Below, piece after piece: positions 41,966 to 63,444 of a stretch of DNA of 64,000 nt (the stretch's first letter is position 1; each line of letters opens with the position of its first letter). Under the pieces are notes generated by a model. It searched no databases and had not been told where the DNA came from. It worked only from the letters and a program-made list of their open reading frames with translations. Source of the stretch: Candidatus Altiarchaeota archaeon (lineage in GTDB: Archaea > Altiarchaeota > Altiarchaeia > IMC4 > SCGC-AAA252-I15); the NCBI GenBank assembly GCA_043800255.1, contig JAZDNF010000008.1, forward strand, positions 1-64,000, written 5' to 3'. Position numbers and translations under genes: made by a program.

Positions 41966-42128
41966 TGGGCCTGCGGAGATTTGAACTCCGGACCTCTCGA
42001 TTTCAGAAGCGACGCGTAATTCGCGTCCTGCACCTCCCGTCTTTTTTCTTTGGGGGTGAAGCACCTTTCTTTTCTAAAGAAAGGGGCTCTATCAGTCGAG
42101 TGCTCTAACCAGTCTGAGCCACAGGCCC
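41966..42128 (-). tRNA. tRNA-Ile(GAT) with 88-nt canonical intron (42002-42089)
   Basis: GGGCCTG/CAGGCCC, A73, CTCGA-CTGATA|A-TCGAG, BHB with one U-U mismatch. Confidence 0.92.
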
Positions 42129-42199
42129 TTGTAAGCAAAAGGTGAGTTAATCTTAGTGATTTAATACTAAAATAAGTTTTTCCTAAAAGAAAAAGGCTT

Positions 42200-42292
42200 G
42201 TCGAGTGCTCAGCGCGAGAAGCTCTGCTTCTCGGCTCGCCAAAATCGCAGTGGCGATTTTGCGCGTAACCAGTCTGAGCCACAGGCCCTTGT
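42200..42292 (-). pseudogene. Duplicate tRNA-Ile 5' half interrupted by a 55-nt twin-hairpin insertion
   Basis: GTCGAGTGCTC (42200-42210) and TAACCAGTCTGAGCCACAGGCCCTTGT (42266-42292) match the tRNA; no anticodon. Confidence 0.8.
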
Positions 42293-42310
42293 TTATTCTT
42301 TAGTTATTAT

Positions 42311-42395
42311 GGGCCATTAAGCGACCGAAAGGGAGCGCATATGGCTCAACCGAGACATCCGTCTCGGTGAGCACGAAGACGAATGTCTTCGTTGC
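42311..42395 (+). repeat. TAAGCGA..GAGCGCAT module copy 2 plus CGAGAC/CGAAGAC twin hairpin
   Basis: Matches 35090-35125, 63199-63231 and 63625-63672. Confidence 0.8.
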
Positions 42396-42482
42396 TCCTT
42401 TGGCCAGCCTTTAAAAAGGCTGTGAGCCACAGGCCCGTGAAAATTTGAGGTTATTTTTAGTGTTTTTAAGATAAAAAATAGT

Positions 42483-42821
42483 CTACTTAATCCATTTTTG
42501 TCTGGCTTTTTTGATGGTGCCGCTGACTCCTATGATGTGGGGGAGTACGGGCGTCTTGTTTATCTCTGTTATTGTTACTATTGAGGCTCTCACTGGGTCG
42601 ACTGTCTTATGGTTTGTTTTTAGTATTCCAATGTTCTTGTTCTCATCCCATTCTATGAGCCAGAGGCTGGTTGTGGCGGCCTGCACCTCCCCCAGAAGCC
42701 TCTGAGTTGCGTTCAACAGCGCGTGTAGGACGTCCTTCTCATTCAGCCTAACGCTGGATTCTACCTTCAAGACCAGGTACCGGTTCCGTTCCCTCAATGT
42801 TGGGGGGTAGCGTGCTGCCAT
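42483..42821 (-). CDS. rnp2: RNase P protein Pop5/Rpp14
   Basis: PTLRERNRYL, GVSGTIKKA. Confidence 0.92.
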   Translation of the reverse strand: MAARYPPTLRERNRYLVLKVESSVRLNEKDVLHALLNATQRLLGEVQAATTSLWLIEWDENKNIGILKTNHKTVDPVRASIVTITEINKTPVLPHIIGVSGTIKKARQKWIK

Positions 42822-42823
42822 GG

Positions 42824-44278
42824 TTATTTTTTCTTCCAGTAATCTGCGTGTTTTTTCTCCACCTTTACTCTGCTGAGGAGGTTTATTATCGCATAGGATG
42901 CGAACATTATCTCGAACGGTATAAGCGGCACCTTGTACCTCTGCATGTAGAAGCTGACCATGTAGGTGACCGTGGTTATCGCAAAATATAGGTAAAATAT
43001 GCTGTGCTGCTTCCAGTATCGTTTGCAGGTTAACGCGACCCCGGCCAGAGTTAGAATCCACAGAGGCCACGCGTATGCGAGGTAATTCTCAGGATACCAT
43101 CGTAGTATGCACGTTTCAGTGGGTATGAACCAGAATTCTGTCAAGAAACGGTTTATCTTCTGTATGAAGATGTCCGGGTGCGCGGTTATGTGCTCTAGCG
43201 CGAGTTTTATCGCCAGCCTGTTCTTCGCCGCATCGTAGTTGGGCTGCGCCGGGTCCAAATTCTCGAAGGGGCTATAGTGGACTCCCTCCGGAGGCGAGTG
43301 CTCGTAGCATCCTGAGCTGTAGGGGTTGTTCCCGATCCAGAAGTTGACTCCGCTGTTCGTTGAGACGAACACGATTTCTCCGCCGCTGACGTTGTAGTTC
43401 CTGATGAACCAGGGCAGCTGTATTATGAGCACGGCCGCCAGGAGTATGGCCGAGAGCCGGAGCACATGCTTGCGGTCTTTCAGGTTTATGAGCAGCCAGA
43501 TTATGATCGCAGGTATCAGGAACACGGTCTGGGCTTTCAGGTACAAGGAAAAACCCACGGCAGCGCTAGCAACAATCCACGATTTCAGGTTGTTGTATTT
43601 TCGGAAGATGAACATGCAATAGAATCCAACCAGGAGAACGGATATGAGAAGCATCTCATTGTAGAGGTTTGTGGCATGGAAGAATAGGTCCAAATCGACC
43701 AACGAGATTACGAACGACGCCCACGCGACTCTGTCGTTGAAAAGCAGCTTCGCTATCTTCCACAACAGGAAGGCGTTTATTACGCTAAGGAGCACGAGAC
43801 TGAGCCTCCCGATAACATAGTCTCCGCCGAACAGGTAGTAGACCATGCCCAGGAAGTACGAGAACCCGGGCTCGTAATAGTATCCTGGGAATCCCTTCCC
43901 GCCTGCTATGCTCAGCCCGAACCTGTGATAGCCTTCGTCATCTTGGCCTGGGAGAGGCGCCCTATAGTCTCTGGCGAAGTCGACCTTCATGTAAGTCGAG
44001 CCTATGAGGATGAACAACGTTATGAGGGCGACAAGCGGCCTCTCTTTTATGAAATTGACCACGTCGGAGAGTGTGGAGTTGATGTCCTCCAGCAGGTTGT
44101 ATTCGTTCTCGAACTCGAGGCCACAATTGGGGCAGTAGGGGTAGTCGTCTCTTATAGGTGAGTCGCATTCACCACACCTGAGTTCTGTTTTCAGCTTTTT
44201 CACCACCCTGGTCCTGCATTCGGGGCAGCTGCTGTCGCCTTCAGCAAGCTCTCTCCCGCAATTGTAACAGTAGGCCAT
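42824..44278 (-). CDS. Double zinc ribbon + GT-C glycosyltransferase (PMT/ArnT-like)
   Basis: Four CxxC motifs, then DD.GY, PWFIRN, NFWIGNNP, many TMs. Confidence 0.85.
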   Translation of the reverse strand: MAYCYNCGRELAEGDSSCPECRTRVVKKLKTELRCGECDSPIRDDYPYCPNCGLEFENEYNLLEDINSTLSDVVNFIKERPLVALITLFILIGSTYMKVDFARDYRAPLPGQDDEGYHRFGLSIAGGKGFPGYYYEPGFSYFLGMVYYLFGGDYVIGRLSLVLLSVINAFLLWKIAKLLFNDRVAWASFVISLVDLDLFFHATNLYNEMLLISVLLVGFYCMFIFRKYNNLKSWIVASAAVGFSLYLKAQTVFLIPAIIIWLLINLKDRKHVLRLSAILLAAVLIIQLPWFIRNYNVSGGEIVFVSTNSGVNFWIGNNPYSSGCYEHSPPEGVHYSPFENLDPAQPNYDAAKNRLAIKLALEHITAHPDIFIQKINRFLTEFWFIPTETCILRWYPENYLAYAWPLWILTLAGVALTCKRYWKQHSIFYLYFAITTVTYMVSFYMQRYKVPLIPFEIMFASYAIINLLSRVKVEKKHADYWKKK

Positions 44279-44321
44279 CTTCTGGAGTATAAGATTATGT
44301 TTAATTAAAATTTAAGTGAGG

Positions 44322-45341
44322 ATGAAATCCGAGGTACTATATTATAGTAATACTGGGAGGATTAGGGAGGGCGTTGACAGGTTCCTCAAGGTTGTCTCCG
44401 ATGACCTTGGAAGGGACGGGGTAGCTTTCAAGATACACTTCGGCGAAAAGGGGAATGATACGCACATAAGGCCCAAATGGGTTAAGGGCATTCCCGAATA
44501 CTTCAACGACCCTGTGTTCGTCGAGTGCAATGTGATGTACAGGGGCTCGAGGACGAGGCGTTCAGACCATCTGAAGATGGCGAAAGAGCATGGCTTCGAT
44601 TTCATCAACATAGACATACTGGACGGCGAGATGGGTGAGGATTCTGTTGACGTGCCAGTCGCGCTGAAAGGCAGGAAGTCCGTGAAGCTTGGGGCTGGCA
44701 TACTAAAGTATGACAGGCTGGTGGCGCTCTCACACTTCAAAGGCCATATGGCGACCGGCTTCGGAGGCGCGCTGAAGAACATTGGCATGGGCTTGGGCTC
44801 GAGGGCTGGGAAGATGGAGATGCATTCTATAATCTCGCCCTACGTTGACAGCGCCAAATGCACTGCCTGCGGCGTCTGCGTGGAAAACTGCGACTTCAAC
44901 GCCATCGAATTGGGCAAGGCTGCCAGCATAGACAAAGAAAAGTGTGCAGGCTGCGCCAGGTGCATCGCAGTATGCCCGAACGGCGCGGTCAGCATACCCT
45001 GGGATATGAGCGACGAGGTTAATAACAGACTAATGGAGAACATCGCAGACTACGCCTTCGGCGCAACATCAGGGAGGAGATGGTGGTACATCAATTTTTT
45101 GACTGACATGACAGTGGACTGCGATTGCATGCCGCACGCCCAGAAGAGAATCGCCGATGACATTGGGATTCTGCTGTCAAAGGACCCGGTAGCGATAGAC
45201 CAGGCCTCCCTGGACTTAATAGTCGAGAAGAACGGCAAAGACCCGTTCAAAGCAGCCAACAAAGTGGACAGCTCCCACATTCTGGAGTATGGCGAAAGCA
45301 TCGGCCTCGGAACCAGGGAGTATACGCTGAATCGTATTTAA
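44322..45341 (+). CDS. DUF362 Fe-S protein with 2[4Fe-4S] insert
   Basis: KIHFGE.GN, HFKGH..GFGGALKN, two CxxCxxCxxxC, CDC, DPVAIDQA. Confidence 0.9.
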   Translation: MKSEVLYYSNTGRIREGVDRFLKVVSDDLGRDGVAFKIHFGEKGNDTHIRPKWVKGIPEYFNDPVFVECNVMYRGSRTRRSDHLKMAKEHGFDFINIDILDGEMGEDSVDVPVALKGRKSVKLGAGILKYDRLVALSHFKGHMATGFGGALKNIGMGLGSRAGKMEMHSIISPYVDSAKCTACGVCVENCDFNAIELGKAASIDKEKCAGCARCIAVCPNGAVSIPWDMSDEVNNRLMENIADYAFGATSGRRWWYINFLTDMTVDCDCMPHAQKRIADDIGILLSKDPVAIDQASLDLIVEKNGKDPFKAANKVDSSHILEYGESIGLGTREYTLNRI

Positions 45342-45365
45342 TTGCGGGCTTCCAATAATAATGTT

Positions 45366-47300
45366 ATGCGCACAGCAGAGGCTGGTTTAAAGCAGAAACC
45401 TGAAGGCACTTCTAAGTTTGACGTCCCGCTCAAGCAGGTCACAGGCTCAGACAAGCAATCGGAAGGGCAACTTGTTCTAGTCATCCTGGACGGCTGGGGT
45501 TTGGACAAAAAACTGAACGGTTGGGCTGACCCAGCTAACAGGAAGAAACTGACGGGAAATGCGATAGCGATGGCTAAGACCCCGAATATGGACTGGCTGT
45601 GGGCCAGTTACCCTCATCTCGTGATGAAAGCAAGCGGAGACCACATCGGCCTCAGGCCGGCAGACCCGACCATCGGACGGCAGGATGAGGAGGGGAACAG
45701 CGAAGTAGGCCACATGAACACCGGCTCAGGCCAGAAGCTCACGCTCTCGAAAGGCATAGACGAGAAGCTCGCTGACGGCTCCTTCTTCGAGAATCCTACA
45801 CTGAGAAAGGTCATGCAAAATGCCGTGGACAACGGCAGGCCGTTGCACATCTTTGGGATGGTGTCTGACATGGGCGTCCACAACAGGATAGACCACATGT
45901 TCGGGCTTTTTGAACTTGCGAAACGCGTTGGAGTGAAGGACGTACTGGTTCACGCCTTCACGGATGGCAGAGACACTGTCGAAAAGAACGAGGCAGTTTT
46001 GGGCGACGGGACAGGATACTTCGAGAAAGTGGTTGACGGGATAAAAAAATTCAACGCAGAAGCCGGAGGAAAGACTAGGGTCAAAGTAGCTTCCATCATG
46101 GGCCGCAGCTGGGGAATGGACAGAAACGATGAGAACTGGGACAAGACCGTATTCGCCTACAAGAGCATGCGATTCGGCGTTATTGTGGATGATAATGTGA
46201 CGGTTCGGACAGCTAAGGACCCGATAGAAGCCGTTAAAGCAGCGTATACGACTGAGAAGAAGAGGGGGGAATTCGAATCGGACGAGGACATAGTTCCAAC
46301 ACTGATCGTCGGGGCAGACGGCAAACCGATAGGCATAATACGCGACGGCGACTCAGTAATCGCAGCCAACTTCAGGAAGGACCGGATGATACAAATCACC
46401 AAGTGCTTTGTGGAGGATAACCTCTGGGACAAGAAGCACAACCCTGTTGACCTCAAAAGAGGGCCGGGAGACAAAGACGAGAAACCGGAGGTCGCCTTCA
46501 CAGGCCTGACATACTACTATGACGAGCTCAGAGGCAAGGTTGGGATGGCATTCACGACGGAGCCGCCGAAGAATACACTCTCAGACGTCCTGTATGAGGC
46601 TGGCAGGAAATCCTGGGCATGCGCAGAGTCGAACAAGTACAGTCACGTGACCCAGTATTTCGCAGGAGGCGAGCGCGACAAGCCGCTTCCCAACGAGGTC
46701 TGGGATCTCGTGGAATCTCCAACAGTGGTAGTGAATGGGAAAAAACAGAAAATCCAGACCGTAGACCTGTGGAGGAAGCCTGGCATGAGCGCGGCAGCCG
46801 TCGCAGACCACGCGGTTGATGCCATCAGCTCCGGCAATTACGATTTTGTCAGAATGAACTTCGCGAACCCGGATATGATAGGACACTGCGATCCTGTAAT
46901 AGGAGCAACCGATTTGGAGGGCAACAGGATAACATCAAGCGTAGATTCGGCAAAATTCGCCGTGGAGGCTGTCGACCGCCAGGTTGGCAGAATCGTGGAA
47001 GCCTGCCAGAAAACCAACTCCACCCTCATAATCACAGCAGACCACGGCAACGCTGAGGTGATGATCAACCAGAAGGGGACTACGAGCAAAAAGCACACGA
47101 ACAACGACGTGCCCTTTATCGTCATCCCCGCCAGGGGGACGAAAGTCGAACTCGCTTCTGATGATGCCCGCGGCAGGGCGGCTGAACTGAGGGACATCGC
47201 GCCCACGATACTCACCCTCATGAACTTAAAAGACAGAATCCCTAAGGAGATGACAGGGAAAAACCTTGCGACCAGGATAACCCACGCCAACACCGTCTGA
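45366..47300 (+). CDS. gpmI: 2,3-BPG-independent phosphoglycerate mutase (divergent, expanded)
   Basis: ILDGWG, GNSEVGH, DGRD, NFRKDR, NPDMIGH, TADHGNAE. Confidence 0.88.
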   Translation: MRTAEAGLKQKPEGTSKFDVPLKQVTGSDKQSEGQLVLVILDGWGLDKKLNGWADPANRKKLTGNAIAMAKTPNMDWLWASYPHLVMKASGDHIGLRPADPTIGRQDEEGNSEVGHMNTGSGQKLTLSKGIDEKLADGSFFENPTLRKVMQNAVDNGRPLHIFGMVSDMGVHNRIDHMFGLFELAKRVGVKDVLVHAFTDGRDTVEKNEAVLGDGTGYFEKVVDGIKKFNAEAGGKTRVKVASIMGRSWGMDRNDENWDKTVFAYKSMRFGVIVDDNVTVRTAKDPIEAVKAAYTTEKKRGEFESDEDIVPTLIVGADGKPIGIIRDGDSVIAANFRKDRMIQITKCFVEDNLWDKKHNPVDLKRGPGDKDEKPEVAFTGLTYYYDELRGKVGMAFTTEPPKNTLSDVLYEAGRKSWACAESNKYSHVTQYFAGGERDKPLPNEVWDLVESPTVVVNGKKQKIQTVDLWRKPGMSAAAVADHAVDAISSGNYDFVRMNFANPDMIGHCDPVIGATDLEGNRITSSVDSAKFAVEAVDRQVGRIVEACQKTNSTLIITADHGNAEVMINQKGTTSKKHTNNDVPFIVIPARGTKVELASDDARGRAAELRDIAPTILTLMNLKDRIPKEMTGKNLATRITHANTV

Positions 47301-47301
47301 G

Positions 47302-47452
47302 CTTTTGTCAAGAACCGCTGGTGTGGCGGAGGCAGATGCCTCCGACACGCGCCCGAGCAAGGCTCGGCCGCGTCAGAGACCGGCGGCATGAAATCAGAGG
47401 GGAAATAGTCTTGACAGAAGATTTCCGCCACCAGTCAATAGACTGGTGGAAA
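47302..47452. repeat. Nested multi-hairpin intergenic element
   Basis: 12-bp outer stem enclosing GC-rich twin hairpins, followed by a further 9-bp hairpin. Confidence 0.6.
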
Positions 47453-47486
47453 TCTCTGATTTATACCGTGCCATTTCATAGTTATC

Positions 47487-48035
47487 ATGGAGTTCATGAC
47501 AGATGCGTTGCTGGAAGTCGGAAAGGCAGGATTGTTAATTGCATCTGAGGTTGTAATCATCATAGTAGTCGCCCACGTTCTCATAAAAACCGTGGACAAA
47601 CTGCTTGGAAAGATCCTCAAGTTCACTAACTTCGACAGGACGCTTGAGAAGTTCTTCCACAAGAGCGTTATAATGCTGCTATGGATACTGACAGCAGGAG
47701 TCATCCTGCTGGTTCTGGGAGTCGACCTGAACACGCTCCTAGCCAGCTTCGGGGTGATGAGCTTCATAGTCGGTTTCGCGCTGAAGGACACCCTCAGCAA
47801 CTTCGCCTCAGGGATTATGATACTCGTCAACAAACCATTCGTCGTCGGGGATGACATAGAAATCAAAGAGGCGAAGGGCACGGTCAAAACGGTCAGCATG
47901 ACGTACACCAAAATCGTCACAAAAGACGGCGCCAAAATAACCATCCCCAACAATGTAGTCTGGAGCAACCCCATAATAAACCACACAGCATACAGGGCGA
48001 AAGACAGAGTCAGGAGAGAGGGGGAAGCTCAGTAG
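47487..48035 (+). CDS. mscS: Small-conductance mechanosensitive channel
   Basis: GFALKDTLSNFASG, PFVVGD.I, IPN. Confidence 0.92.
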   Translation: MEFMTDALLEVGKAGLLIASEVVIIIVVAHVLIKTVDKLLGKILKFTNFDRTLEKFFHKSVIMLLWILTAGVILLVLGVDLNTLLASFGVMSFIVGFALKDTLSNFASGIMILVNKPFVVGDDIEIKEAKGTVKTVSMTYTKIVTKDGAKITIPNNVVWSNPIINHTAYRAKDRVRREGEAQ

Positions 48036-48126
48036 GTTGTTTATTTTTCTACGGAACCGCGGGGGGAGAGCACAATCTCGTGTAATGCGCTCGGTTTAAT
48101 AACGGAACTGATACATAGGTGATAAT

Positions 48127-48273
48127 ATGGCCTCTAAGAGATTTTTCAGGTGTAATGTCTGCAATGACGTACACTTCGGGCTGGCAGGCCCCGCAGTATG
48201 TCCGACATGCCAGGCTAAGAACGCCTACGTCGAGATTGACGCCCAGGAAGCTAGGAACGTGATGAACTTATGA
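48127..48273 (+). CDS. Rubredoxin-like small metal-binding protein
   Basis: Manual translation MASKRFFRCNVCND..CPTC..; ATGA overlap with the next gene. Confidence 0.8.
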   Translation: MASKRFFRCNVCNDVHFGLAGPAVCPTCQAKNAYVEIDAQEARNVMNL

Positions 48274-48536
48274 ACAAACAGGAGCTTAGGGCGGCTTGGG
48301 AAAAGTTCACGGAAAAAAACGACTTCAAACTGAACCCTGACGACGAACACGTATCTCTCGTCATAGAAGGCGTTCTCGAGAACGAGAGAAAATGCGGCCT
48401 CAAACTGTGCCCCTGCAGGCTGAGGGACGGCAGCAGGGAGATGGATTTGAAGCTCATATGCCCATGCAACTTCAAGGCCCAGGACACATGGAAAACGAAG
48501 GGACAGTGCTGGTGCGGCCTGTTCGTCAGAAAATAG
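48270..48536 (+). CDS. Ferredoxin-thioredoxin reductase catalytic subunit
   Basis: CPCR, ICPC, CWCGLF. Confidence 0.9.
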   Translation: MNKQELRAAWEKFTEKNDFKLNPDDEHVSLVIEGVLENERKCGLKLCPCRLRDGSREMDLKLICPCNFKAQDTWKTKGQCWCGLFVRK

Positions 48537-48574
48537 GTTAATATTTTATAATACAATAATATTGGGGTGACAGC

Positions 48575-49426
48575 ATGAGAACAGCAGTTATCGGAATATT
48601 CATCGCATTACTTGTTTTGGCTTCAGGGTGCACTAAGGAACCATCAGTCCCTGCGACAACGACGGTTACGCCCACATCAGCCGAGACGACTGTCGCAGTA
48701 AAGCCTTCGATAAAGGTCTCCACCAACCCAGCTGGCAGCACCGTCAGCGTCGACAGCCTGTACGTGGACGAGGACGGTTTCGTGGTAATACATAAGTTCG
48801 AGAACGGCCAGCTTGGGGAAGCCGTAGGCAACACTTACGTCACAGCAGGCCAGAAATCCGACGTCGAAGTTGGGATTTCCGGCGTCGAGGCTCCAGCGGA
48901 GCTTATTGCGATGCTCCACTATGATGACGGCGACGGAGTCTACGAGTTCCCGGGGCCTGACGGGCCGGTGAAGATTGGCGACATGATAGTGATGACAAAC
49001 TTCAGCCTCGTTGAGGCAACAGGAATCCAGTGCATAGACTGCGCTACAGGCTACACTGGAGGCGGATGCGCGACCGTGGATGATGTAACAGGAGAGATTG
49101 TCTCACCGCCGCCGTGCGTTCTGGAGGAGACTACCACATCCGTCACCGTGAGCGTTAAGGAATTCGACATCACAGCCAAACGGTTCAGCTTCACCCCGTC
49201 AACGATCAGGGTAAAGCAGGGCGACAATGTCAGGATAAGATTGACGAGCGCCGACGTCACGCACGGCTTCGCGATATCAGAATACGAGATAGACGAGAAG
49301 GTTAGCGGAGGCGAGACGAAAACGTTCGAGTTCACTGCTGACAAGGAGGGTATGTTCACCTTCAAGTGCTCCGTCTACTGCGGCACAGGCCACATGAACA
49401 TGAAAGGAACTCTGATAGTGGAGTAG
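48575..49426 (+). CDS. Lipoprotein with C-terminal CuA-type cupredoxin domain
   Basis: LASGC lipobox; DVTHGF...CSVYCGTGHMNM. Confidence 0.85.
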   Translation: MRTAVIGIFIALLVLASGCTKEPSVPATTTVTPTSAETTVAVKPSIKVSTNPAGSTVSVDSLYVDEDGFVVIHKFENGQLGEAVGNTYVTAGQKSDVEVGISGVEAPAELIAMLHYDDGDGVYEFPGPDGPVKIGDMIVMTNFSLVEATGIQCIDCATGYTGGGCATVDDVTGEIVSPPPCVLEETTTSVTVSVKEFDITAKRFSFTPSTIRVKQGDNVRIRLTSADVTHGFAISEYEIDEKVSGGETKTFEFTADKEGMFTFKCSVYCGTGHMNMKGTLIVE

Positions 49427-49427
49427 G

Positions 49428-54771: not shown

Positions 54772-56010
54772 ATGCCACTCTCGATTGTTATCCTCCTTGC
54801 TGTGTTTGTCCTGATAGCGGTGAGGAGAATAGGCAACCTCAGACTGGAGATATGGCAGATCATGCTCTTTGGCGCCTTGGCTGCACTGCTGACCGGACAG
54901 ATATCTGCGGCGGAAGCGCTCATGTCCATAAACTTGGACGTCATGCTCTTCCTGTTTGGGATGTTCGTCGTAGGCCAGGCTCTTGAAGAAAGCGGCTATC
55001 TTGCGCACATCTCATACAAGTATTTTAAGCGGGTGAAATCCGTTGACGGTCTTATACTTGCAATCCTGTTTGGCATGGGCACGGCGTCAGCATTTCTCAT
55101 GAACGACACACTGGCTATTATTGGAACGCCTGTGGTGCTGTTGCTTGCAAGGAAGCACGGCATAAGTCCTAAGGTACTGCTTCTTGCGCTTGCGTTTGCG
55201 GTGACGATAGGCAGCGTTATGAGCCCCATCGGGAACCCCCAGAACCTGTTGATTGCAGTACAGGGCGGGATAGGAAACCCGTTTCTGACGTTCTTCAAGT
55301 TTCTGCTGATACCGACAGTAGTGAACCTGTTCATGGCGTATCTCCTCTTGAAGTTCTTTTATGGGGAACACTTTCATAGCAGCTCATTGAGCCATTCCCA
55401 GGAGCCTATACGAGATCACAAGCTTGCGGTGCTTTCTAAGATTTCCCTCCTCCTGGTCGTAATCATGGTTCTTCTGAAGATGGTCGTATTTTTTGTCGGT
55501 TTGGGCTTTGAATTCGGGCTTACCTATATCGCGCTTGTTGGAATGTTACCTGTCCTGTTGAGCGGCAGGAGGCTTCATATTCTAAAATCGATAGACTGGC
55601 ATACTCTGATCTTCTTCGCCGCTATGTTCATCCTGATGGAAAGCGTGTGGGATTCCGGGTTTTTCCAAACGATTATCGATGATACGGGTTTCAGCATATC
55701 CTCCATTGGCATGATATTCGCCGTTGGCGTCATCCTGAGCCAGCTCATATCGAACGTGCCTTTGGTCACACTCTACCTGCCCCTGCTGGTACATGCAGGC
55801 GCCTCTACGAAGGAGATGTTAGCATTAGCTGCCGCCAGCACGATTGCCGGCAACCTGTCGATTTTGGGCGCAGCGAGCAATGTCATAATAGTGCAGAACG
55901 CTGAGAAGAAGTCGGGGGAGACGCTGACCTTCTGCGAGTTCGTCAGAGTCGGCGTACCGCTCACGGTATTGAATGTTGGAGTATACTGGGTTTTCCTTGT
56001 GCTTGTTTGA
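54772..56010 (+). CDS. ArsB/NhaD-superfamily anion transporter
   Basis: MNDT, SPIGNPQNL, ISNVP, STIAGNL..GAASN. Confidence 0.9.
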   Translation: MPLSIVILLAVFVLIAVRRIGNLRLEIWQIMLFGALAALLTGQISAAEALMSINLDVMLFLFGMFVVGQALEESGYLAHISYKYFKRVKSVDGLILAILFGMGTASAFLMNDTLAIIGTPVVLLLARKHGISPKVLLLALAFAVTIGSVMSPIGNPQNLLIAVQGGIGNPFLTFFKFLLIPTVVNLFMAYLLLKFFYGEHFHSSSLSHSQEPIRDHKLAVLSKISLLLVVIMVLLKMVVFFVGLGFEFGLTYIALVGMLPVLLSGRRLHILKSIDWHTLIFFAAMFILMESVWDSGFFQTIIDDTGFSISSIGMIFAVGVILSQLISNVPLVTLYLPLLVHAGASTKEMLALAAASTIAGNLSILGAASNVIIVQNAEKKSGETLTFCEFVRVGVPLTVLNVGVYWVFLVLV

Positions 56011-56064
56011 CTGCTTTTTTAGTTGGAGGTTCAATCATCTCTTATTAGTTTTTATCTTGAGGGG

Positions 56065-56505
56065 ATGATGCGGGGCGTTAAGTTGAATCAAAGATTGAAG
56101 GACTTTTTTGACAGGACTCTTAGGGCTAAGAGGTCCCCTCATTCCATAGCATTGGGTTTTGCCATCGGCAGTTTCATCGCCATAATGCCGACGCCAGGCT
56201 TCGGGACGCTGTTAGGCCTTCTTGTAGTCTTACTTTATAAGAAGGTTAACAAGCTCTCTGTTTTCCTGGGGCTGGCATTTTGGAATCCGCTGACGCTGGT
56301 GCCGCTCTACATACTGAGTTACAAGATCGGGGACATGCTCTTAGCCCCTGTGCCCGTGGTAGACTATGATATAGGGGTGATGTACGCCGGCTACCATTTA
56401 ACGAGGCGGTTCCTGTTGGGCAACCTTATCCTCTCAACACTGTTGTCAACAGTCAGCTATGCTGCTGTGAGACTGTACGTCGAATCTCAGCAGAAGAAGC
56501 TGTGA
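56065..56505 (+). CDS. DUF2062 family membrane protein
   Basis: SPHSIALGFAIG, NPLT. Confidence 0.85.
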   Translation: MMRGVKLNQRLKDFFDRTLRAKRSPHSIALGFAIGSFIAIMPTPGFGTLLGLLVVLLYKKVNKLSVFLGLAFWNPLTLVPLYILSYKIGDMLLAPVPVVDYDIGVMYAGYHLTRRFLLGNLILSTLLSTVSYAAVRLYVESQQKKL

Positions 56506-56595
56506 GGAACACACAAATCTAGGATATACTCTAGACTGTCCGCAATATAGATTAAAAAAAAAGGATAATGGGCTTTTTTGCAGCCCCGCTCATCT

Positions 56596-56790
56596 TCAGA
56601 TGACTTTCACGTTTCCGGCTTTTGGCCCGCGGTCTCCTTCTACTATGTCAAATGAAACGCGGTCGTTTTCGTTGAGCGTTTTGCCGCTTTTGAGGGCGCT
56701 CTCGTGGACGAAGTAGTCTTTACCGTCGTCGCCGTTTATGAAGCCGAACCTTTTCATCCTGTTAAAGAATTTGACTGTTCCTTCAACCAT
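56596..56790 (-). CDS. Cold-shock protein
   Basis: GTVKFFN..FGFI, YFVH, GPKA. Confidence 0.95.
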   Translation of the reverse strand: MVEGTVKFFNRMKRFGFINGDDGKDYFVHESALKSGKTLNENDRVSFDIVEGDRGPKAGNVKVI

Positions 56791-56956
56791 TGTAGTATCA
56801 CCTCCATGTAATGCTTATTTTCCGCCCGAATTGGACGTTAAATCCTAGTTGGATTCTGTTAGAAACAGAAAGAACATGCGGGAACATAAGTCAACAATAG
56901 GTAAGTGTTTTTCTACCTATTAGGGTTTTATGCTTAAAAATCAAACTATCCTGTCC

Positions 56957-57481
56957 TTACAGGTCGTCCAGGGCATCTCCCAGCAATCCCCGCACCCGTT
57001 TCTTCTCATTCAGGAAGTATTGCCTCACAAGGGCCAGGTGGTATATGGGCTTGGCCATTATCTGAGCGGGGGTGGAATCAGCCAGCAGTTTCATCACCGC
57101 CTCCTGGTCCCACGAGTCCATACCCCTCTCAACTCTTATAGTCTCCGCCTTGCTGTCCAGTCTTCCGCCTTCGGATTCCCACAGCTGCTTTAACGCTGAG
57201 AAAACTTTGGAGTTGAGGTCGTCTTCCAGCTTTTTCATAGAGAGGCCGAAAATCACAGCATCGATTTCTTGTTTGCCTAGCATGTCCCCTAACTGCGGCC
57301 CGAAGGTTGCTGCACCCTCAATCAGCGAGTCTTCTGATAGCTGGGTTCGTGGTTTCCGGCCTAAAGATTTTGGCATAAGCTCTCTCAGCTTCTGGATAGG
57401 GGAGCCCTGCTTTTCCCTGTCGTCTTCTTTTTTCTTAGGCTGCCGGCGCCTGTCCTTTGGGAATTCTATCAGCTCTCCCAT
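56957..57481 (-). CDS. Hypothetical protein
   Basis: 174-aa ORF, charged N-terminus. Confidence 0.6.
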   Translation of the reverse strand: MGELIEFPKDRRRQPKKKEDDREKQGSPIQKLRELMPKSLGRKPRTQLSEDSLIEGAATFGPQLGDMLGKQEIDAVIFGLSMKKLEDDLNSKVFSALKQLWESEGGRLDSKAETIRVERGMDSWDQEAVMKLLADSTPAQIMAKPIYHLALVRQYFLNEKKRVRGLLGDALDDL

Positions 57482-57516
57482 GGTTTATTACAATGAACGC
57501 CGGGATAATATATACT

Positions 57517-58665
57517 ATGGACCGGGTTGTCTTGCGCAGGGCATCTGATGGACTCGCGCAAGAGGTCAGGCAGAACCTGGAAGCCATTGAGAGGCTGACT
57601 CCCAAGGAGGCTGGCAAATTGAAGCCTGCTGTCACGGAGGAGCTGAAAGTTGACTTGCACCATCACTTCGTGCCTTCTACGAATCCTGCCAAGCGGGCTA
57701 AACAGGTTAGGGCGTTCTGGAAGGCTGTGCAGGCGAGCGATTTGGATGCTGTCGCCGTAACAACGCACAGTGACATCGAAAGAGGCGACGTCAATCCTGA
57801 GTCCATCTATCGTGAGCTTAGGGAGGCAATGCCTGAGAAGCTCAGGAAAGGCAAGTTCAAGCTTTTGGCTGGGCTTGAAGTCCAGTGCAGACCGAATAAA
57901 ACGGAGATAGGTCTGATATCCCCTGAGCCGGACCTCCTCTATAAGGATCCCTTCTGGTATTCGATGCCCTCTGCAGATGATGTTGGGAGGAAAATAAGAG
58001 ATGACAGCAGGCTGCTTGGTTATTTGCCGCATCCTTTCTCCGGTTCTGGGGGAGCTGCTCATGGATCACACATGGGCGCGGACGAGGCTAGGAGGCTGGT
58101 GGGAGAATACGGCCTCGGCGTTGAATTCACTGGCATGTACAGGGACGGTAAGCTGCTGACGCAGCAGCCTATTTTGAGGCAGCTTTTAGGCCTTTTTGAG
58201 ATGCTGCCTCAGAAGAATAAGGTTCTGACGAAGATTGCGGCCGTGTCCGAGGGCTTCAGGCGGGCGGATGAGGAGGTGCATAGGAGCGGGCTGGCGGGTG
58301 AAGCCAGGTTCGTAACAGTCGGAGGCGACTATCATGATGCGAAAGACCTCGGCAAATCTTACATACTCGTTCCTGTGAAGAAAAAGTCCGATAAGCCGCT
58401 CAGCCAACAGTATGACATTCTGGAGAGCGGGGGCGGCATGATCCTGTTGGAGGCGAGCAAAAGCGCAGTCTCGGATGCTGCTGGCAGGCCTGCCTCAGAG
58501 GAGGAGATCATCGAAAGCATCAAAACGACAAAAGACACTGCGGAACCCCACCTGCAGGGAGAGCAGGGGAAAGACTTCAAGCTGCTCCTGAACCTGACAG
58601 CCGAATTCGCAAGAGAGACGAAAGCCAACCTCAGAGAAAAACGCCTAGTGAAAAAACAAGAATAG
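57517..58665 (+). CDS. PHP-domain metal-dependent phosphoesterase-like protein
   Basis: DLHHH, AVTTHSD, GLEV, PHPF, GGDYH. Confidence 0.75.
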   Translation: MDRVVLRRASDGLAQEVRQNLEAIERLTPKEAGKLKPAVTEELKVDLHHHFVPSTNPAKRAKQVRAFWKAVQASDLDAVAVTTHSDIERGDVNPESIYRELREAMPEKLRKGKFKLLAGLEVQCRPNKTEIGLISPEPDLLYKDPFWYSMPSADDVGRKIRDDSRLLGYLPHPFSGSGGAAHGSHMGADEARRLVGEYGLGVEFTGMYRDGKLLTQQPILRQLLGLFEMLPQKNKVLTKIAAVSEGFRRADEEVHRSGLAGEARFVTVGGDYHDAKDLGKSYILVPVKKKSDKPLSQQYDILESGGGMILLEASKSAVSDAAGRPASEEEIIESIKTTKDTAEPHLQGEQGKDFKLLLNLTAEFARETKANLREKRLVKKQE

Positions 58666-58846
58666 ACTCTGTCAAATCCGAATCTTGCCGAAGGTGGGAA
58701 CCTAAACATTGGTACAAGAGGAGTTAAAAACGTTAGACTGTGAGGTAACAAAAAAGACGGCATAAAATAGATTTCAGACTGATTCTACTGAAGATATTAT
58801 AGAACAATGATATAAAAAGCGTTATGTTCTTATACATAAACTGAGG

Positions 58847-59221
58847 ATGAAAGCGTTGCATAGTTTTGTTCATCAGAGTAGGGAGGGTAAGATAACTTCT
58901 TTGTCAATGTATTTGGCTGATTCTGGGCAGGCGTTGAACATGTCAGTTAGTGAGAAGATCAACGACACATCGGAGATAATCCGGGTGAAATTCAACTTGA
59001 ACGAGATCGCAGCAATGTCTAAACTAAACACTTGGTCTACCTACCACTCCTTTGAGAAGGAGGGTAAGACGTCAGAGACTCGGATAAACTGGAACACCCC
59101 CTTCTTCAGCGTTGAGAAGGAGGGTAAAAAGATCGCGATAAAATTCACCGACGCTGAAATTTATGGGTTTCAGATGACGCTGGAGACCGCATTCCAAGAG
59201 CTGATCAGAAGAGGAAAATAG
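58847..59221 (+). CDS. Hypothetical protein
   Basis: 124-aa ORF with internal EKEGK repeat. Confidence 0.6.
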   Translation: MKALHSFVHQSREGKITSLSMYLADSGQALNMSVSEKINDTSEIIRVKFNLNEIAAMSKLNTWSTYHSFEKEGKTSETRINWNTPFFSVEKEGKKIAIKFTDAEIYGFQMTLETAFQELIRRGK

Positions 59222-59228
59222 ATTATTT

Positions 59229-60758
59229 CTAGTTGTTTTTAGATTCGCTGATACCTTCAAAATCGATATACCCTCGCGTGGGATCCACATTGATCAATCT
59301 AACACGAACTTTCTGTCCGACAGCCATTCTTTCCCCTCCATGCATGACCCTGCCTTCTACTGGTGGTGAGATAATCCGTACATAAGTTCCCTTTTCAGAA
59401 GCCCCGGTGACAATCCCATCAAATGAGTCCCCTAATCTATCACCCAATAATACCGCTGCCGCTGCCTTTCGCATGAAACGTTCAACCTTCTGAGCAGCTT
59501 TGTCGCGATCAGTACACCACAATGAAAGTTCAATTAACTCTTTTTGAGTATACGGACTTGATTCTTTTGCCAGAACTGATTTAAAAAGCCGTTGAAGAAT
59601 AACATCCACATAACGTCGGTTAGGGGCTGTAGCATGAGTGTAGTCCATAACGGCAAGGCCAAAATGGCCATATGAAGGCTTACCCGGCTCAAGCATGACA
59701 TATTCGCCTGCCCCCAACAACTTTACGATCGTTAAAGACAGATCAGGGAAATGTTCGGAATCAACCTCTTTTTGCCTAATGAGAAATTGTGAAAGCGCCT
59801 TTGAGTCAGGTTCAGAAGGCAAAGTCTCACCGTGGGCGACAGCGACATCCATTATACCCCTCCAGTTTCGAGGAGTGCGGACGACCCTCTGGATTACCGG
59901 AATTCCTGCTTTTTCTAAAAAATTCATCATCGTCACATTGACGGCTATCATAAGGTTCTCAATCAAGTATCGTGCTCGATTTTTCCTTTGGATTACTAAA
60001 CCTTTTACCCTCTCGTTCTCCACAACCGGTTTAGGTTCGATTGTGTCCAATTCAAGAGCCCCTTTGTCCATACGAAATTTTCTTAAACGTTGCGAGGCCT
60101 CATCCTGCAGGGCAAGTTGTTCTTCTAGCCCGGGAATTTCCCGTACGAGATGGGGAGCAGGGCCCTTCCCCTCAAGCCAGTCACCGATTTCTTCATAAAT
60201 AAGCTTTGCTTTATTGCGCACAATCGCACGGTATATGTCTCCTGAGCGGATGCTCCCGTCTAAAAGGACTGCAAACTCGATGACAACTGCCAAGCGGTCT
60301 TGGCCAGCTCGCAGAGAGGAGAGATCAGTAGACAACCTATTTGGAAGCATTGGGAAAATCTCTATCCCAGTATAAACCGATGTGCCATTTTGAACGGCAT
60401 GCTGGTCAGTTTGGGAGTTTTTTGGGGCAAACAAATCAACATCAGCAATAGCAACCTTAACCAGTATCTCTTGGTTGGAACCATGCTCACAGTATTCTAG
60501 TTGATCAAGGTCCAGAGAATCCTCATTATCGATTGAAGACCATAATAATGAACGAAGGTCTCTGGCATCATTTTGACCGCCTTTCAAAAGCTGTTTTACA
60601 TTGATAGCGTTGACTTCATTTATCACAAGCTTTGGGAATTGGGATTGGAAACCATATTTATTCATCGCCTTTCTGGCTATGGCCTTAAGGTCTAGGTTAC
60701 GGTAATTAGCGATATTTCCTATCCTCTCTCCCCCACTTTTTCGCTTAGGACGTTCCAT
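59229..60758 (-). CDS. RNB-family (RNase II/R-like) exoribonuclease
   Basis: SIDN..S.DLDQ, VAIADV, HFGLA..YTH.TAPNRRYVD, S1 domain. Confidence 0.9.
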   Translation of the reverse strand: MERPKRKSGGERIGNIANYRNLDLKAIARKAMNKYGFQSQFPKLVINEVNAINVKQLLKGGQNDARDLRSLLWSSIDNEDSLDLDQLEYCEHGSNQEILVKVAIADVDLFAPKNSQTDQHAVQNGTSVYTGIEIFPMLPNRLSTDLSSLRAGQDRLAVVIEFAVLLDGSIRSGDIYRAIVRNKAKLIYEEIGDWLEGKGPAPHLVREIPGLEEQLALQDEASQRLRKFRMDKGALELDTIEPKPVVENERVKGLVIQRKNRARYLIENLMIAVNVTMMNFLEKAGIPVIQRVVRTPRNWRGIMDVAVAHGETLPSEPDSKALSQFLIRQKEVDSEHFPDLSLTIVKLLGAGEYVMLEPGKPSYGHFGLAVMDYTHATAPNRRYVDVILQRLFKSVLAKESSPYTQKELIELSLWCTDRDKAAQKVERFMRKAAAAVLLGDRLGDSFDGIVTGASEKGTYVRIISPPVEGRVMHGGERMAVGQKVRVRLINVDPTRGYIDFEGISESKNN

Positions 60759-62887
60759 CTCTCTTTTTCTTCTTCGTTAAACGAGCTTTTTACCTGCTTT
60801 AATGCCTGCTGGAAGTGTTTCATGGTGACTTTCCTTGAAGTCGGCTTGTCTTTGCTTTGGCCTATTGACTCGCGTATGGCGTTCATCCCAGCTTCCCTAC
60901 ATACTGCGGAGATGTCTGCTCCGTTATAGTTTTCAGTCGCGTTCACCATTTCATCTAGTTTTATGTCTGAGTCAAGATTCATCTTTTTCATGTGCACTTT
61001 AAAAATCTTTTCGCGGCTTATCTTGTCTGGGAAGGGGACGTAGATAATCTTGTCCAATCTTCCGGGGCGCATCAACGCTTCATCCAAAAGATCCGGCCTG
61101 TTTGTAGAGCCTATTATCATGACGTCCTTAAGCTCTGATACTCCATCTATTTCGGTTAATATTTGAGCGACGACTTTTTCGTTCACGTCGCTTCCGAAGC
61201 TTTCACCTCTTTTCGGGATTAGGGCGTCCAGTTCATCGAAGAATATGATTGCTGGAGCAACTTGTCTTGCCCTGCTGAATACCTTCCGTACTCCTCGCTC
61301 AGACTCTCCCACGTACTTGTTCAATAGTTCCGGGCCTTTTATTGATATGAAGTTTACTCCGGATTCTTTTGCAATGGCTTTAGCGAGCATGGTTTTTCCG
61401 CAACCTGGCGGCCCGTATATCAGCACACCTTTAGGCGGCGCTACTCCAGTCTCCTTGAACATGCTGCTGTATTTGATAGGCCATTCAATGCTTTCCTTGA
61501 GTTGTCCTTTGACTTTTTCAAGTCCGCCTATATCGTCCCAGGTTACGTTGGGTATTTCAACTGAGACTTCACGCATGGCTGATGGTTCCACCCTGCTCAT
61601 GCCCTCATGGAAGTCTTCTCCAGTAATCTTTATTTTGTTTAGTATGTCCGTTGAAAGCTTCATATCTTTCGCCTTCTTTATATCCGGCATCAGTTTCCTC
61701 AACGCTTTCATGGCTGCTTCCTTGCAGAGTGCTTCAAGGTCCGCTCCAGTGTAGCCGTAAGTTATGTCTGCAAGGTGGTCAAGATTCACGTCTTTAGCTA
61801 GAGGCATGCCTCTTGTATGAATCTGCAAAACTTCCTTCCTACCGTTCCGGTCTGGAACCCCAATCTCAATCTCTCTGTCGAACCTACCCGGCCTTCTAAG
61901 GGCAGGGTCTATTGAGTCCGGCCTGTTGGTTGCTGCAATCACTACAACTTCTCCTCTCGACTGGAGACCGTCCATAAGCGTTAAGAGCTGGCTTACGATT
62001 CTTTTTTCAACTTCGCCATGGACTTCCTCACGGCTGGGTGCTATAGCGTCAATCTCGTCAATGAATATTATCGCGGGAGTGTGTTCTTGCGCATTCTTGA
62101 ATACTTCCCGCAAGTTTTCCTCACTTTGACCGTAGTATTTGCTCATAATTTCCGGGCCGTTCAGTGATATAAATTGAGCGTCGGTTTCGCTTGCAACCGC
62201 TTTTGCAAGAAGGGTTTTTCCGGTTCCGGGAGGCCCGTATAACATGACTCCTTTCGGCGGTTTTATTCCTAGCTTTTGGAAGACTTCAGGATGTTTTATC
62301 GGAGTTTCAATCATTTCTCTTATCGCGTCTATCTCATCTTTGAGCCCGCCGATGTCCTCATACCTTATTCCAGGAGACAGTTCAGTAGTCTTCACCGGAT
62401 TTTTGGATATCCTGATTTCAGTGTCGGGGGTTACAATGACTATCCCTTTTGGCTTGATGCGGGTAACCATCAACGGGAGTTGAACTCCCATGACATCTAC
62501 AACGACAACATGTCCTTGCATGAAGGGCATATTCATTAACTTCTCCTGCAGGTATATTGGAAGATCATCTCCAAACTCTATGGGCTGAAAGGGACTGAAT
62601 TGTATCTCACTCGCCTTACTGTAGTCGACTTTTTCTACTTTGACCTCTTCGTCAATGCTTGCGCCAGCATTGTGCCTTATTATCCCATCAAGCCGTATAC
62701 TACCCCGCCCCTCATCTTCCATCTGCCCGGGCCAGGCTCTTGCAGAAGCTTTCTTTTTACCTTCTATGACAAGTATATCCCCCGGTGAAAGCTTCATCTT
62801 TCTGAATACTACAGGGTCTATCCTTGCAATACCCCCACCCACTTCGTTTACCCTAGCCTCCTTGACTTTTAAAATCGCGTCTTTCAT
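60719..62887 (-). CDS. cdc48: CDC48/VAT AAA+ ATPase
   Basis: Two AAA modules GPPGTGKT and [14 protein letters not shown]. Confidence 0.95.
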
Positions 62888-63198
62888 TCTACCCTCTCTC
62901 TGGATCTCCATCCACAATGTCTTTCACATAGACGGTCATACCATCAATAAAGGAAATGCAAACTACTTGGGAAGGATATTAGAATACAACAATAAATCCA
63001 CTGTTTTGGCTTAGTCAAGGAAGATAGAACGCAACGCGGCTTAGAGTAGGTAAAAGTAGTGAACATCACAACACAATAAGCAAAGTGAGTGGGCTAAGTG
63101 CTCTGACACATCAACTGGAGGATAAGGTTCGAAGTTACAGTGTTAGAGTTCAAGTCCCTAAGGGCTCTGAAAAAACACGAATCAAAAGGATGCTCAGT

Positions 63199-63231
63199 GC
63201 GGCTAAGCGAGCGTTAGCGAGCGCATGCCGC
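63199..63231 (+). repeat. TAAGCGA..GAGCGCAT hairpin module, copy 3
   Basis: gcggc-TAAGCGA-gcGTTAgc-GAGCGCAT-gccgc. Confidence 0.8.
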
Positions 63232-63259
63232 TCCCTGGCGTAAACGGACAGTGTCGGTT

Positions 63260-63444
63260 TGCCGAAGGCGGGACTCGAACCCGCGACCTCCAGATAACTC
63301 AGCGTTATCGTGAAATCTTCCCTAGCCTTTGGCTACGGTGCCCGGCCCCAAAATTTTTTCTTTGGGGGTGAAGCACCTTTCTTTTCATAAAAGAAAGGGG
63401 CTCGCTTATGAGTCTGGCACTCTGCGCTACTGAGCTACTTCGGC
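63260..63444 (-). tRNA. Elongator tRNA-Met(CAT) with 111-nt canonical intron (63296-63406)
   Basis: GCCGAAG/CTTCGGC, A73, CCAGA-CTCATA|A-TCTGG, BHB CTCA/TGAG. Confidence 0.88.

Follow-up and report, generated by a model that had tools for sequence, protein, structure and literature searches.

For the Thermoproteales, 'large-scale tRNA intron transposition' has been described, with similar introns occurring in different tRNA genes (Fujishima et al. 2010, as reported in the review PMC4090602), and the same review calls the mechanism of this transposition unknown. In Caldiarchaeum subterraneum, according to Sugahara et al. 2012 (PMC3293823), an integrated mobile element left a tRNA 5' fragment beside an intron-bearing tRNA gene, and a 2026 preprint on Asgard tRNA introns gives no general arrival route, stating that 'how they arrive remains open'. 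We have analyzed a stretch of 64,000 nucleotides from a Candidatus Altiarchaeota archaeon (hereafter the window; positions 1 to 64,000 of contig JAZDNF010000008.1, forward strand, assembly GCA_043800255.1), in which the introns of two tRNA genes, tRNA-Ile(GAU) and tRNA(CAU), begin with a near-identical segment of about 48 nt. The segment proved to be a copy of a widespread and strongly constrained cassette built from three sequence tracts, which may adopt a three-stranded fold and probably is, or once was, a self-propagating DNA insertion that travels as cargo in tRNA introns.

The similarity itself was as described in the initial annotation. Direct reading of the window confirmed an exact identity of 33 nt (42042-42074 and 63354-63386), a genuine loop difference of T (42075) versus ATA (63387-63389) with identity on both sides, and 14 further identical bases (42076-42089 and 63390-63403); in both tRNAs, the segment sits at the 5' end of the intron and the remaining intron sequences are unrelated. 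In a BLAST comparison with the whole genome, the Ile and CAU segments matched at 47/50 positions with one gap (E = 7e-14). Both copies are located on the minus strand, within introns that follow tRNA position 37. Delineation of the two genes (Table 1) depended on the tools used: ARAGORN in default mode, which ignores introns, reported zero tRNAs in the window, and Rfam at gathering level found a single tRNA there (RF00005 on tRNA(CAU), 52.6 bits) and nothing meaningful at E <= 10 around the Ile locus. With introns allowed, ARAGORN placed a gene at c[41966,42128] and misnamed its anticodon; several other anticodons were mis-assigned as well, and anticodons were taken by eye. The tRNA(CAU) is Met by its anticodon, with Ile2 as the alternative. 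Features of box C/D guide RNAs were not seen in the shared 48 nt, which contain no C box (RUGAUGA) or D box (CUGA) and gave no Rfam match.

Both introns have the appearance of canonical archaeal introns. Joining the exons restores 7-nt anticodon loops, CTGATAA for Ile and CTCATAA for CAU, and a bulge-helix-bulge motif could be drawn by eye in either case. In tRNA(CAU), it comprises CUCA/UGAG with 4/4 base pairs and the bulges UA|A and UU|A; in tRNA-Ile, it consists of CUGA/UCUG with 3/4 base pairs plus one U.U, and the bulges are UA|G and AA|A. The genome encodes the splicing endonuclease EndA (PF01974, 109.7 bits, G000:C8:119565-119825, in an open frame of 179 aa; G000 designates the genome to which the window belongs), and the cassette should leave together with the intron upon cutting by this enzyme. 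In one public metagenome contig, 42001 is followed directly by 42090, so that precisely the 88 nt of the Ile intron are missing; this is a single contig of depth 2.6, obtained at a likeness threshold of 90 and derived from related sequence. All four public runs containing the sequence are DNA metagenomes. Public contigs over the window are fragmentary, such that uncovered stretches are uninformative, and joints skipping 160, 148 and 51 bases in the upstream tRNA-Ile copies (single low-depth contigs, threshold 90) were not built upon.

Read in the sense of the tRNA, the cassette (~45-60 nt) runs from a flank GARC through a C-run with a pyrimidine tract, a small loop (2-5 nt), a complementary purine tract and a linker to a second C-run, and it ends with a second purine tract. 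In copy 1 of the window, this order is realized as GAGC-C-CC-TTTCTTT / loop / AAAGAAA-GG-T-GCTTC / A / CCCCC-AAAGAAAAAA. Two classes of copies can be distinguished by the linker, which is fixed as GTGYTTCAY in class A, to which the window copies belong with G-TGYTTCA-YCCC(C), and reads CGTTSAYG(G), CCTTTGGG or similar in class B, which includes most other copies in the genome. An alignment of 72 distinct class A copies revealed a hairpin of columns 2-16 with 32-46, in which 94.6% of the cells are paired, amounting to 14-15 bp with one invariant C.U mismatch. Compensatory changes were found in 7 of the 14 hairpin pairs, and 86 cells were doubly changed, compared with 27 +/- 8 in shuffles (0/500 reached 86) and at most 14 in slid registers. 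RNAalifold arrived at the same helix, including the C.U mismatch and a lower stem GARC/GYTTC in which the covarying position is G-C in 36 and A-U in 34 copies. The linker G-T-G-Y-T-T-C-A and C49-C51 are invariant in 72/72 copies across phyla. A mini-hairpin GGTG-CTT-CACC within the linker, considered as well, is displaced by the covarying lower stem.

The second purine tract turned out to follow the first strand of the hairpin in parallel orientation. Among class A copies, the parallel complement of the pyrimidine tract fits better than the antiparallel one in 44 of 71, worse in 2, and is tied in 25; in class B, the corresponding numbers are 22, 1 and 10 of 33. Mirror relations of this kind are exemplified by TTTTCTTTCTCCC with AAAAGAAAGAGGG and TTTTTCTTTCCC with AAAAAGAAAGGG. 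Twelve new metagenome copies, taken after the idea had been formed, served as a hold-out and gave 6 parallel, 0 antiparallel and 6 tied cases; the remaining 112 of the 124 matches did not show the complete architecture and were regarded as chance hits of the 17-nt pattern or repeats of earlier sequences. The relation also holds at the level of individual positions. At columns 5/43/48, G-C occurs with C in 33 and A-U with U in 33 of the 72 copies, at columns 9/39/52, C-G with C in 44 and U-A with A in 26, at columns 13/35/56, C-G with G in 59 and U-A with A in 12, and at columns 14/34/57, U-A with A in 60 and C-G with G in 7. The summed mutual information between strands 1 and 3 reaches 2.94 in register; eight neighbouring registers give 0.06-0.65, and none of 500 shuffles exceeds 0.29. 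All four combinations occur at the two main variable sites. Two antiparallel explanations for the match failed. Watson-Crick pairing of the third with the first tract as an alternative long helix would fit symmetric cores only, the asymmetric ones speaking 44 to 2 against it, and pairing of the hairpin loop with the 3' flank in a pseudoknot is at odds with a match that, in L013, L064 and the copy on C7, is parallel instead of antiparallel.

Since the third tract covaries in register and parallel to the first strand, we infer that the cassette forms a fold-back intramolecular triplex with the strand order pyrimidine-purine-purine. Its homopurine tract lies in a mirror repeat and is accompanied by the complementary pyrimidine tract, as in triplex-forming repeats. 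The correspondence follows a simple rule: U-A pairs are matched by A in the third strand, C-G pairs by G, and R-Y pairs by a pyrimidine. A third strand antiparallel to the purine strand, with A at U-A and G at C-G, agrees with a purine-motif triplex; at column 5, where the first strand supplies the purine, G is answered by C and A by U in the third strand, which corresponds to the pyrimidine motif and to the logic of alternate-strand triplexes. Read on the antisense strand, the layers would be U.A-U, C+.G-C and G.G-C. Either strand, as RNA or as single-stranded DNA, might be the one that folds. As a separate observation, the window contains an open reading frame (ORF; 59229-60758, minus strand) with RNB and S1 domains, typical of RNase II/R-type 3' exonucleases, which adjoins a CDC48-type AAA ATPase (60719-62917); a 3' exonuclease is the kind of enzyme that a triplex at a 3' end would block.

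The initial annotation had proposed a comparison of the segment with the genome and a catalogue of tRNA introns. Genome-wide BLAST (G000: 1.75 Mb, 17 contigs, 93% complete) recovered the Ile and CAU copies, yet they were not the only ones: three further full copies reside in tRNA-Glu(UUC) and tRNA-Gln(UUG) on C5 and in tRNA-Val(GAC) on C2. All five form the 5' ends of introns after position 37 and are pairwise 93.6-96% identical (BLAST); a sixth, diverged copy was found at C7:37070-37137. The intron catalogue (ARAGORN with introns) comprises 34 tRNA genes, 28 of them intron-bearing. A looser scan for the family yielded 43 rows, of which, by our own reading, 32 represent compact copies and 11 long-range artefacts. 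Nearly all compact copies lie in or beside tRNA or small-RNA genes: 16 in tRNA introns, 6 within 25 nt after a tRNA 3' end, 4 upstream in sense orientation, 3 at a C/D-box-like small RNA (sRNA) locus and 1 where an ORF starts, and the last 2 lie next to a tRNA in antisense orientation. In non-tRNA loci, no orientation rule relative to neighbouring ORFs emerged among 24 copies.

Some individual loci deserve mention. At C13:11430-11870 (plus strand), a full box C/D-like sRNA gene (GTGATGA...CTGA...ATGATGA...CTGA, with a terminal stem) is preceded by its 5' fragment and a class B cassette and followed by a cassette, a 3' fragment and a further cassette; because this locus carries three of them, cassettes are not restricted to tRNA genes. 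At C16:37819-37883 (minus strand), a class B cassette is placed between two diverged ~66-nt copies of an ORF start (MxYKVKDIxLA...), the second of which retains its own ATG; the ORF is one we take, from its start, to resemble S-adenosylhomocysteine hydrolase. A few family copies have two extra hairpins within the linker, and class A cassettes with an extra two-hairpin insertion in the linker were seen in the tRNA-Ile intron of genome G019 (L112) and in the tRNA(CAU) intron of L113. The insertion site is the same as that of the CGAAGAC/ACGAGAC hairpin pair in class B copies of G000, and nested insertions seem to be tolerated in the linker, or even favoured there. Further small conserved modules occur beside tRNA genes of G000, namely GCCATCTTCG-hairpin-CTCGATGRC, AACTGTCACGCCCAGTTYACATGCG, and ATGAGCCACATGCGC...CGCTTAGTGGCTC, for example at 41900-41965 and 63200-63259 (minus strand) of the window, on C4 and C8, and at C13:42535-42600; they gave no Rfam match within the stretch tested.

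The cassette is old and widely distributed. Of the 41 genomes of the order, 21, among them G000, contain its 25-nt core (up to 3 mismatches), and 4 of 7 families are represented; the reversed-pattern control gave 0. An exact degenerate pattern, applied to one genome per species (185,579 species; chance expectation about 0.02 by our own arithmetic), matched 63 loci, all 63 archaeal by record title. By the same titles, 12 loci are from Altiarchaeota/Altiarchaeales, 4 from 'Euryarchaeota SCGC AAA252-I15', 19 from Thermoplasmata/-tales/-tota, 9 from DHVE2/Aciduliprofundum, 8 from Micrarchaeota, 8 from 'uncultured archaeon', and 1 each from Methanobacteriota, Nanoarchaeia and Promethearchaeota. The Promethearchaeota record (L055) is identical over ~140 nt to an Altiarchaeales-titled tRNA(CAU) locus (L050) and was not counted as a separate lineage. 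Contexts elsewhere include an entire tRNA-Arg(GCG) intron in six Thermoplasmata-type records, tRNA 3' trailers in DHVE2, intergenic arrays, and two Micrarchaeota records in which the cassette appears as a T-loop intron.

Orthologous introns show how differently the cassette and its surroundings have evolved. In other genera, the Met, Glu, Gln and Val introns have the module at the same place, and Altiarchaeales-titled records include orthologs of the Met, Glu and Val ones. Identity of the module versus the rest of the intron amounts to 45/48 versus 51/77 and 46/49 versus 50/74 for two Met orthologs, 47/48 versus 28/53 for the Glu ortholog, and 46/50 versus 31/64 for the Gln ortholog; between genera, the module is thus 92-98% identical compared with 48-68% for the remaining intron, with nearly all module differences in the loop (the comparison leaves out the Val pair, cut short by the pattern, and genome G016, which was unparsed). 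The tRNA(CAU) intron could be traced in 14 genomes, the 3' part being homologous in all of them. The 5' part is a class A cassette in 7 genomes and a class B cassette in 2; another 3 have a different hairpin together with the GCCATCTTCG module, and the last 2 have a plain hairpin. In tRNA-Ile(GAU), a class A cassette occurs in G000, in G019 (with its linker insertion) and, as judged by BLAST, in G020. G025 has a partial hairpin, and G035, G039, G037 and G032 have other introns of 20-97 nt; the gene is intronless in G003 (same family), G026 and G038. Because orthologous introns show such swaps, the module behaves as a cassette.

Several copies carry what look like traces of an insertion event. 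Direct repeats of the adjoining target on both sides of class A copies measure 61 nt (perfect, L021), 55 nt (L049), about 46 nt (L016), 36-41 nt as a double tandem (L053), 36 nt (L026, with a 3' fragment after the complete gene), 27 nt (L047), 23 nt (L063) and 14 nt (L032). Flanking repeats in G000 include the diverged ~66-nt pair at the ORF start and a 15-nt repeat at a tRNA-Arg 3' end; most intron copies are without them. The repeat often extends beyond the gene end, with a complete gene regenerated beside a truncated copy. Such an arrangement would explain the one or two extra 5'-end copies found 100-450 nt upstream of many tRNA genes in G000, and in other genomes, extra upstream 5' copies accompany the gene orthologous to the window's tRNA-Ile, too. 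An origin of all fragment/cassette units by unequal crossing-over between cassettes or simple tandem duplication was considered and fails at L016 and L047, because the complete gene there is intronless and has no cassette upstream.

The surroundings of the two window genes illustrate this organization (Table 1). The extra tRNA-Ile copy stops behind the anticodon-stem strand and might be what is left of an earlier gene copy with a different interruption. The hairpins in the stretch that carries the third 5'-end copy are CAGCCTTTTTAAAGGCTG, ACGAAGAC/GTCTTCGT and CCGAGAC/GTCTCGG, followed by GAGCCATATGCGC...CGCTTAATGGCCC; a near-identical unit is found outside the window upstream of a second tRNA(CAU) gene (C11, ~96.8 kb), and in L122, from a genome of another family, the 14-nt fragment and the first hairpin likewise stand before tRNA-Ile. 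The class B member upstream of tRNA(CAU) has the layout AACCC-TTTTCTTT / AGG / AAAGAAAAG / CGTTGATGG / AAAAGAAA.

Table 1. Positions in the window of the two tRNA genes, the cassettes and the gene fragments.
Feature	Position	Strand	Remarks
tRNA-Ile(GAU)	42128-41966	-	exon 1 42128-42090, intron 42089-42002, exon 2 42001-41966; read from sequence
tRNA(CAU)	63444-63260	-	exon 1 63444-63407, intron 63406-63296, exon 2 63295-63260; Rfam, ARAGORN -i, reading
Class A three-tract cassette, copy 1	42042..42089	-	5' end of Ile intron
Class A three-tract cassette, copy 2	63354..63403	-	begins 3 nt inside tRNA(CAU) intron
Class B member	63529..63570	-	~85 nt upstream of tRNA(CAU), same orientation
Class B member	35205..35274	-	in intron of tRNA gene 35150-35308 (ARAGORN: Ser GCU)
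tRNA-Ile 5' part (to about position 34), extra copy	42200..42288	-	55-nt D-loop insertion; upstream of complete gene
Partial pyrimidine/purine hairpin AAGCC-TTTTTCTTTT-AGG-AAAAA	42176..42199	-	directly after 5' copy 42288-42200
Third tRNA-Ile 5'-end copy (14 nt, 42436-42423) with ~130-nt hairpin stretch	42293..42436	-	

Taken together, the best explanation in our view, to which we assign a rough probability of 0.55, is that of an old, constrained cassette with a three-strand fold, probably a self-propagating insertion, which is carried as cargo in introns. The cassette would be, or would have been, a DNA insertion that propagates itself and lands in or beside small-RNA genes. It would survive where RNA processing removes it again, that is in an intron, a 5' leader or a 3' trailer, and a surviving cassette would then supply sequence to tRNA introns; in each of the two window genes, a canonical bulge-helix-bulge intron would carry it as cargo at its 5' end. 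A bolder formulation, which we put forward tentatively and are inclined to doubt, holds that a cross-phylum cassette is selected for a long triple helix of 12-20 layers with one switch of the purine strand, inserts with long target duplications, and becomes an intron where the bulge-helix-bulge machinery removes it.

A number of observations weigh against this explanation. Shared descent inflates the covariation counts, and no more than four sub-types result from the two main variable sites. Opposite the C.U mismatch and the C-G pairs of the C-run, the third strand of class A carries C, a non-standard triple for this polarity, where class B has G, and purine-motif triplexes of RNA have been reported to be unstable. 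RNAfold, which cannot model triplexes, puts the second purine tract into the loop of a CACCCCC/GGGGGTG hairpin in local introns. A strict three-tract scan of the genome (an asymmetric 7-mer, its reverse complement at most 12 nt away and its parallel complement at most 140 nt away) gave 37 clusters versus 0 in 3 shuffles, yet the direct-repeat control gave 30, so that the scan shows enrichment and not mirror symmetry; the separation of mirror from inverted repeats rests on the tract comparisons and the register test, because the k-mer scan cannot tell mirror from direct ones. As to mobility, the flanking repeats vary in length and sometimes form tandem arrays, and some may stem from slippage rather than being footprints of insertion. 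No copies turned up among viral contigs or plasmids, and in the 93%-complete genome, RVT_1, Y1_Tnp and Cas1 gave 0 hits as transposase-like genes (other transposase families and other genomes lay outside this search); a single tyrosine recombinase is encoded. Finally, a host function would account for the strong sequence conservation of immobile copies no less well than selfishness does.

Such a host function is the most serious competitor, albeit one we consider unlikely. The cassette would then be a beneficial RNA domain of pre-tRNAs and other small-RNA precursors that has spread by recruitment instead of selfish insertion; it might be a compact fold shielding tRNA folding or the bulge-helix-bulge motif from long introns or trailers, a site for a conserved archaeal RNA-binding protein, or the core of a stable circular intron RNA. 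This would agree with the finding that about 27 of 29 tRNA-associated compact copies point in the sense direction of their tRNA (own reading), with the position always directly 3' of a processing site (after position 37 or the discriminator base), with a linker and C49-C51 kept without exception, with orthologous copies far better preserved than the adjoining intron, and with the failure of the above search of G000 to find a mobilizing enzyme. It is less easily reconciled with orthologous introns that have no cassette or another module in its place, with about half of the intron-bearing tRNAs of G000 being devoid of it, and with copies that are antisense to tRNA fragments (L049, L032), lie in an ORF start, or form intergenic arrays of either orientation; and perfect target repeats of 55-61 nt resemble fresh insertions, not recruited parts. 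Quite improbable, to our judgment, is a role of the cassette as DNA, in the form of a structure-forming site (H-DNA or a triplex hairpin) in the non-template strand of small-RNA genes with high transcription, where it could serve as a terminator or insulator, stabilize R-loops, or stall replication forks and thereby cause the local duplications of gene ends. A homopurine/homopyrimidine mirror repeat is the textbook requirement for H-DNA, the 'like with like' triples (A with U-A, G with C-G) suit the purine motif of DNA, the T-rich first tracts directly after 3' ends are at the position of archaeal tRNA terminators, and partial gene duplications cluster at cassettes. However, T5-T6 tracts are also found within introns, as in the class B member in the intron of the Ser gene (35205-35274), where termination would be harmful, and the covarying lower stem GARC/GYTTC as well as the invariant linker would be left unexplained.

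The initial annotation had suggested a recent module transfer or intron-to-intron conversion between tRNA-Ile and tRNA-Met, 21 kb apart. One part of this stands, as a discrete module did move at some time, witness the orthologous introns in which it is swapped, replaced by its sister class, or absent, and the high identity of the five copies in G000 together with the module exchange that orthologous introns show to be possible would speak for the idea. Its recency and its privacy do not stand. The module is 92-98% identical between genera, its core is shared by half of the order's genomes and by records of several phyla by title, and five introns of G000, with orthologs in other genera, carry it; the same variant is present in the Met and Glu orthologs of another genus (46/49 and 47/48), and the differences between Ile and Met are confined to the loop, as they are among orthologs. 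Since the between-genus identity of the module equals that of Ile and Met within G000, no recent exchange is needed to account for the latter. The proposal is largely refuted by the ortholog survey and the identity comparison, and we regard recent transfer or gene conversion within G000 as very improbable; the near-identity is due to constraint on the cassette. Of the two counter-cases named in the initial annotation, that of an ancient invariant feature of all introns in the clade is borne out with respect to age and spread, but not to generality, with a family member in about 16 of roughly 28 intron-bearing tRNA genes. The other, a chimera in which the assembly joined unrelated introns via the common 48-mer, has next to no plausibility left. 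A de Bruijn contig of run X1 (loose end 42044) does lead from the exon of tRNA-Ile across the cassette and on into the intron of tRNA-Glu, from which it follows that the 48-nt repeat can yield chimeric short-word contigs in these populations. Yet separate public contigs bridge both junctions of the Ile copy (in run X1, record 4 spans 42044-42129 with 0 differences and record 1 spans 41900-42073 with 6 differences), and other genomes share the arrangement: the cassette-bearing tRNA-Ile(GAU) is also found in G019 and G020, and a tRNA(CAU) with cassette in six others.

With the constrained, probably mobile cassette as the preferred reading, the unit appears to be undescribed so far. It has no Rfam family, a literature text search with 12-mers of the motif returned unrelated primers only, and no paper was found on tRNA introns of these lineages or on a triple helix or mirror repeat in connection with archaeal tRNA (supplementary files and subscription journals being outside the scope of both searches). 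The cassette may be one way in which archaeal tRNA genes acquire intron sequence; intron gain in these genes is an open question, and a defined, searchable unit makes it testable. The states in which the cassette is seen include canonical and apparently non-canonical introns, swaps between orthologs, target duplications and positions beside truncated gene copies. In-register three-way covariation over a dozen positions is unusual evidence for a long triple-stranded fold under natural selection. Most known folds of this kind are laboratory constructs or belong to a few RNA 3'-end elements. Should the fold be real, the cassette would offer a small model system in uncultivated lineages (by title, Altiarchaeota, Micrarchaeota and Thermoplasmata), and if the cross-phylum triplex reading is true, it would be a concrete vehicle for archaeal tRNA intron gain as well as a rare naturally selected long triplex.

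Among known systems, miniature inverted-repeat transposable elements (MITEs) and small intergenic repeats resemble the cassette in being short, non-coding, multi-copy and hairpin-forming, and some of them are flanked by target repeats. MITEs differ in having terminal inverted repeats, whereas the 3' tract of the cassette is a mirror in 44, inverted in 2 and tied in 25 of 71 copies, and in their fixed short target-site duplication, which contrasts with a variable 14-66 nt here. Intramolecular triplexes and H-DNA, fold-back designs and alternate-strand triplexes share with the cassette the strand order, the polarity and the 'like with like' correspondence, and an alternate-strand triplex predicts the C/U switch where the purine changes strand, as seen at columns 5/43/48. 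Known examples are laboratory constructs or simple genomic repeats, while the cassette is naturally conserved with a fixed linker and a fixed mismatch, and class A is set apart by C, not G, opposite the C-run. The RNA triple helix of the ENE/MALAT1 type is similar insofar as an A-rich strand runs along a hairpin. There, an A-rich tract is clamped by two U-rich strands, and the cassette in tRNA sense has the reverse composition of one pyrimidine and two purine strands; two U-rich strands on the same transcript are not seen in tRNA sense, and only the antisense strand would fit.

The two archaeal systems mentioned at the outset come closest with respect to context. As summarized for the Thermoproteales in the review PMC4090602, different tRNA genes of one genome have very similar intron sequences and gain is thought to occur at the DNA level; different tRNA genes of G000 likewise share intron sequence. 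The similarity there extends over whole introns, whereas only the first ~48 nt are shared here and the remainders differ in sequence and length; moreover, the present cassette is old, occurs in other genera and phyla and also outside introns, and has a defined three-tract architecture. The Caldiarchaeum case, in the account of PMC3293823, has in common with our loci a tRNA 5' copy upstream of the complete gene, inserted DNA in between, and a link of intron gain to a mobile element. The insert described there measures 1.8 kb and encodes a recombinase, in contrast to 50-150 nt with no gene in the present case, and, unlike in Caldiarchaeum, the fragments are situated 100-300 nt upstream and recur at many tRNA genes and in many genomes.

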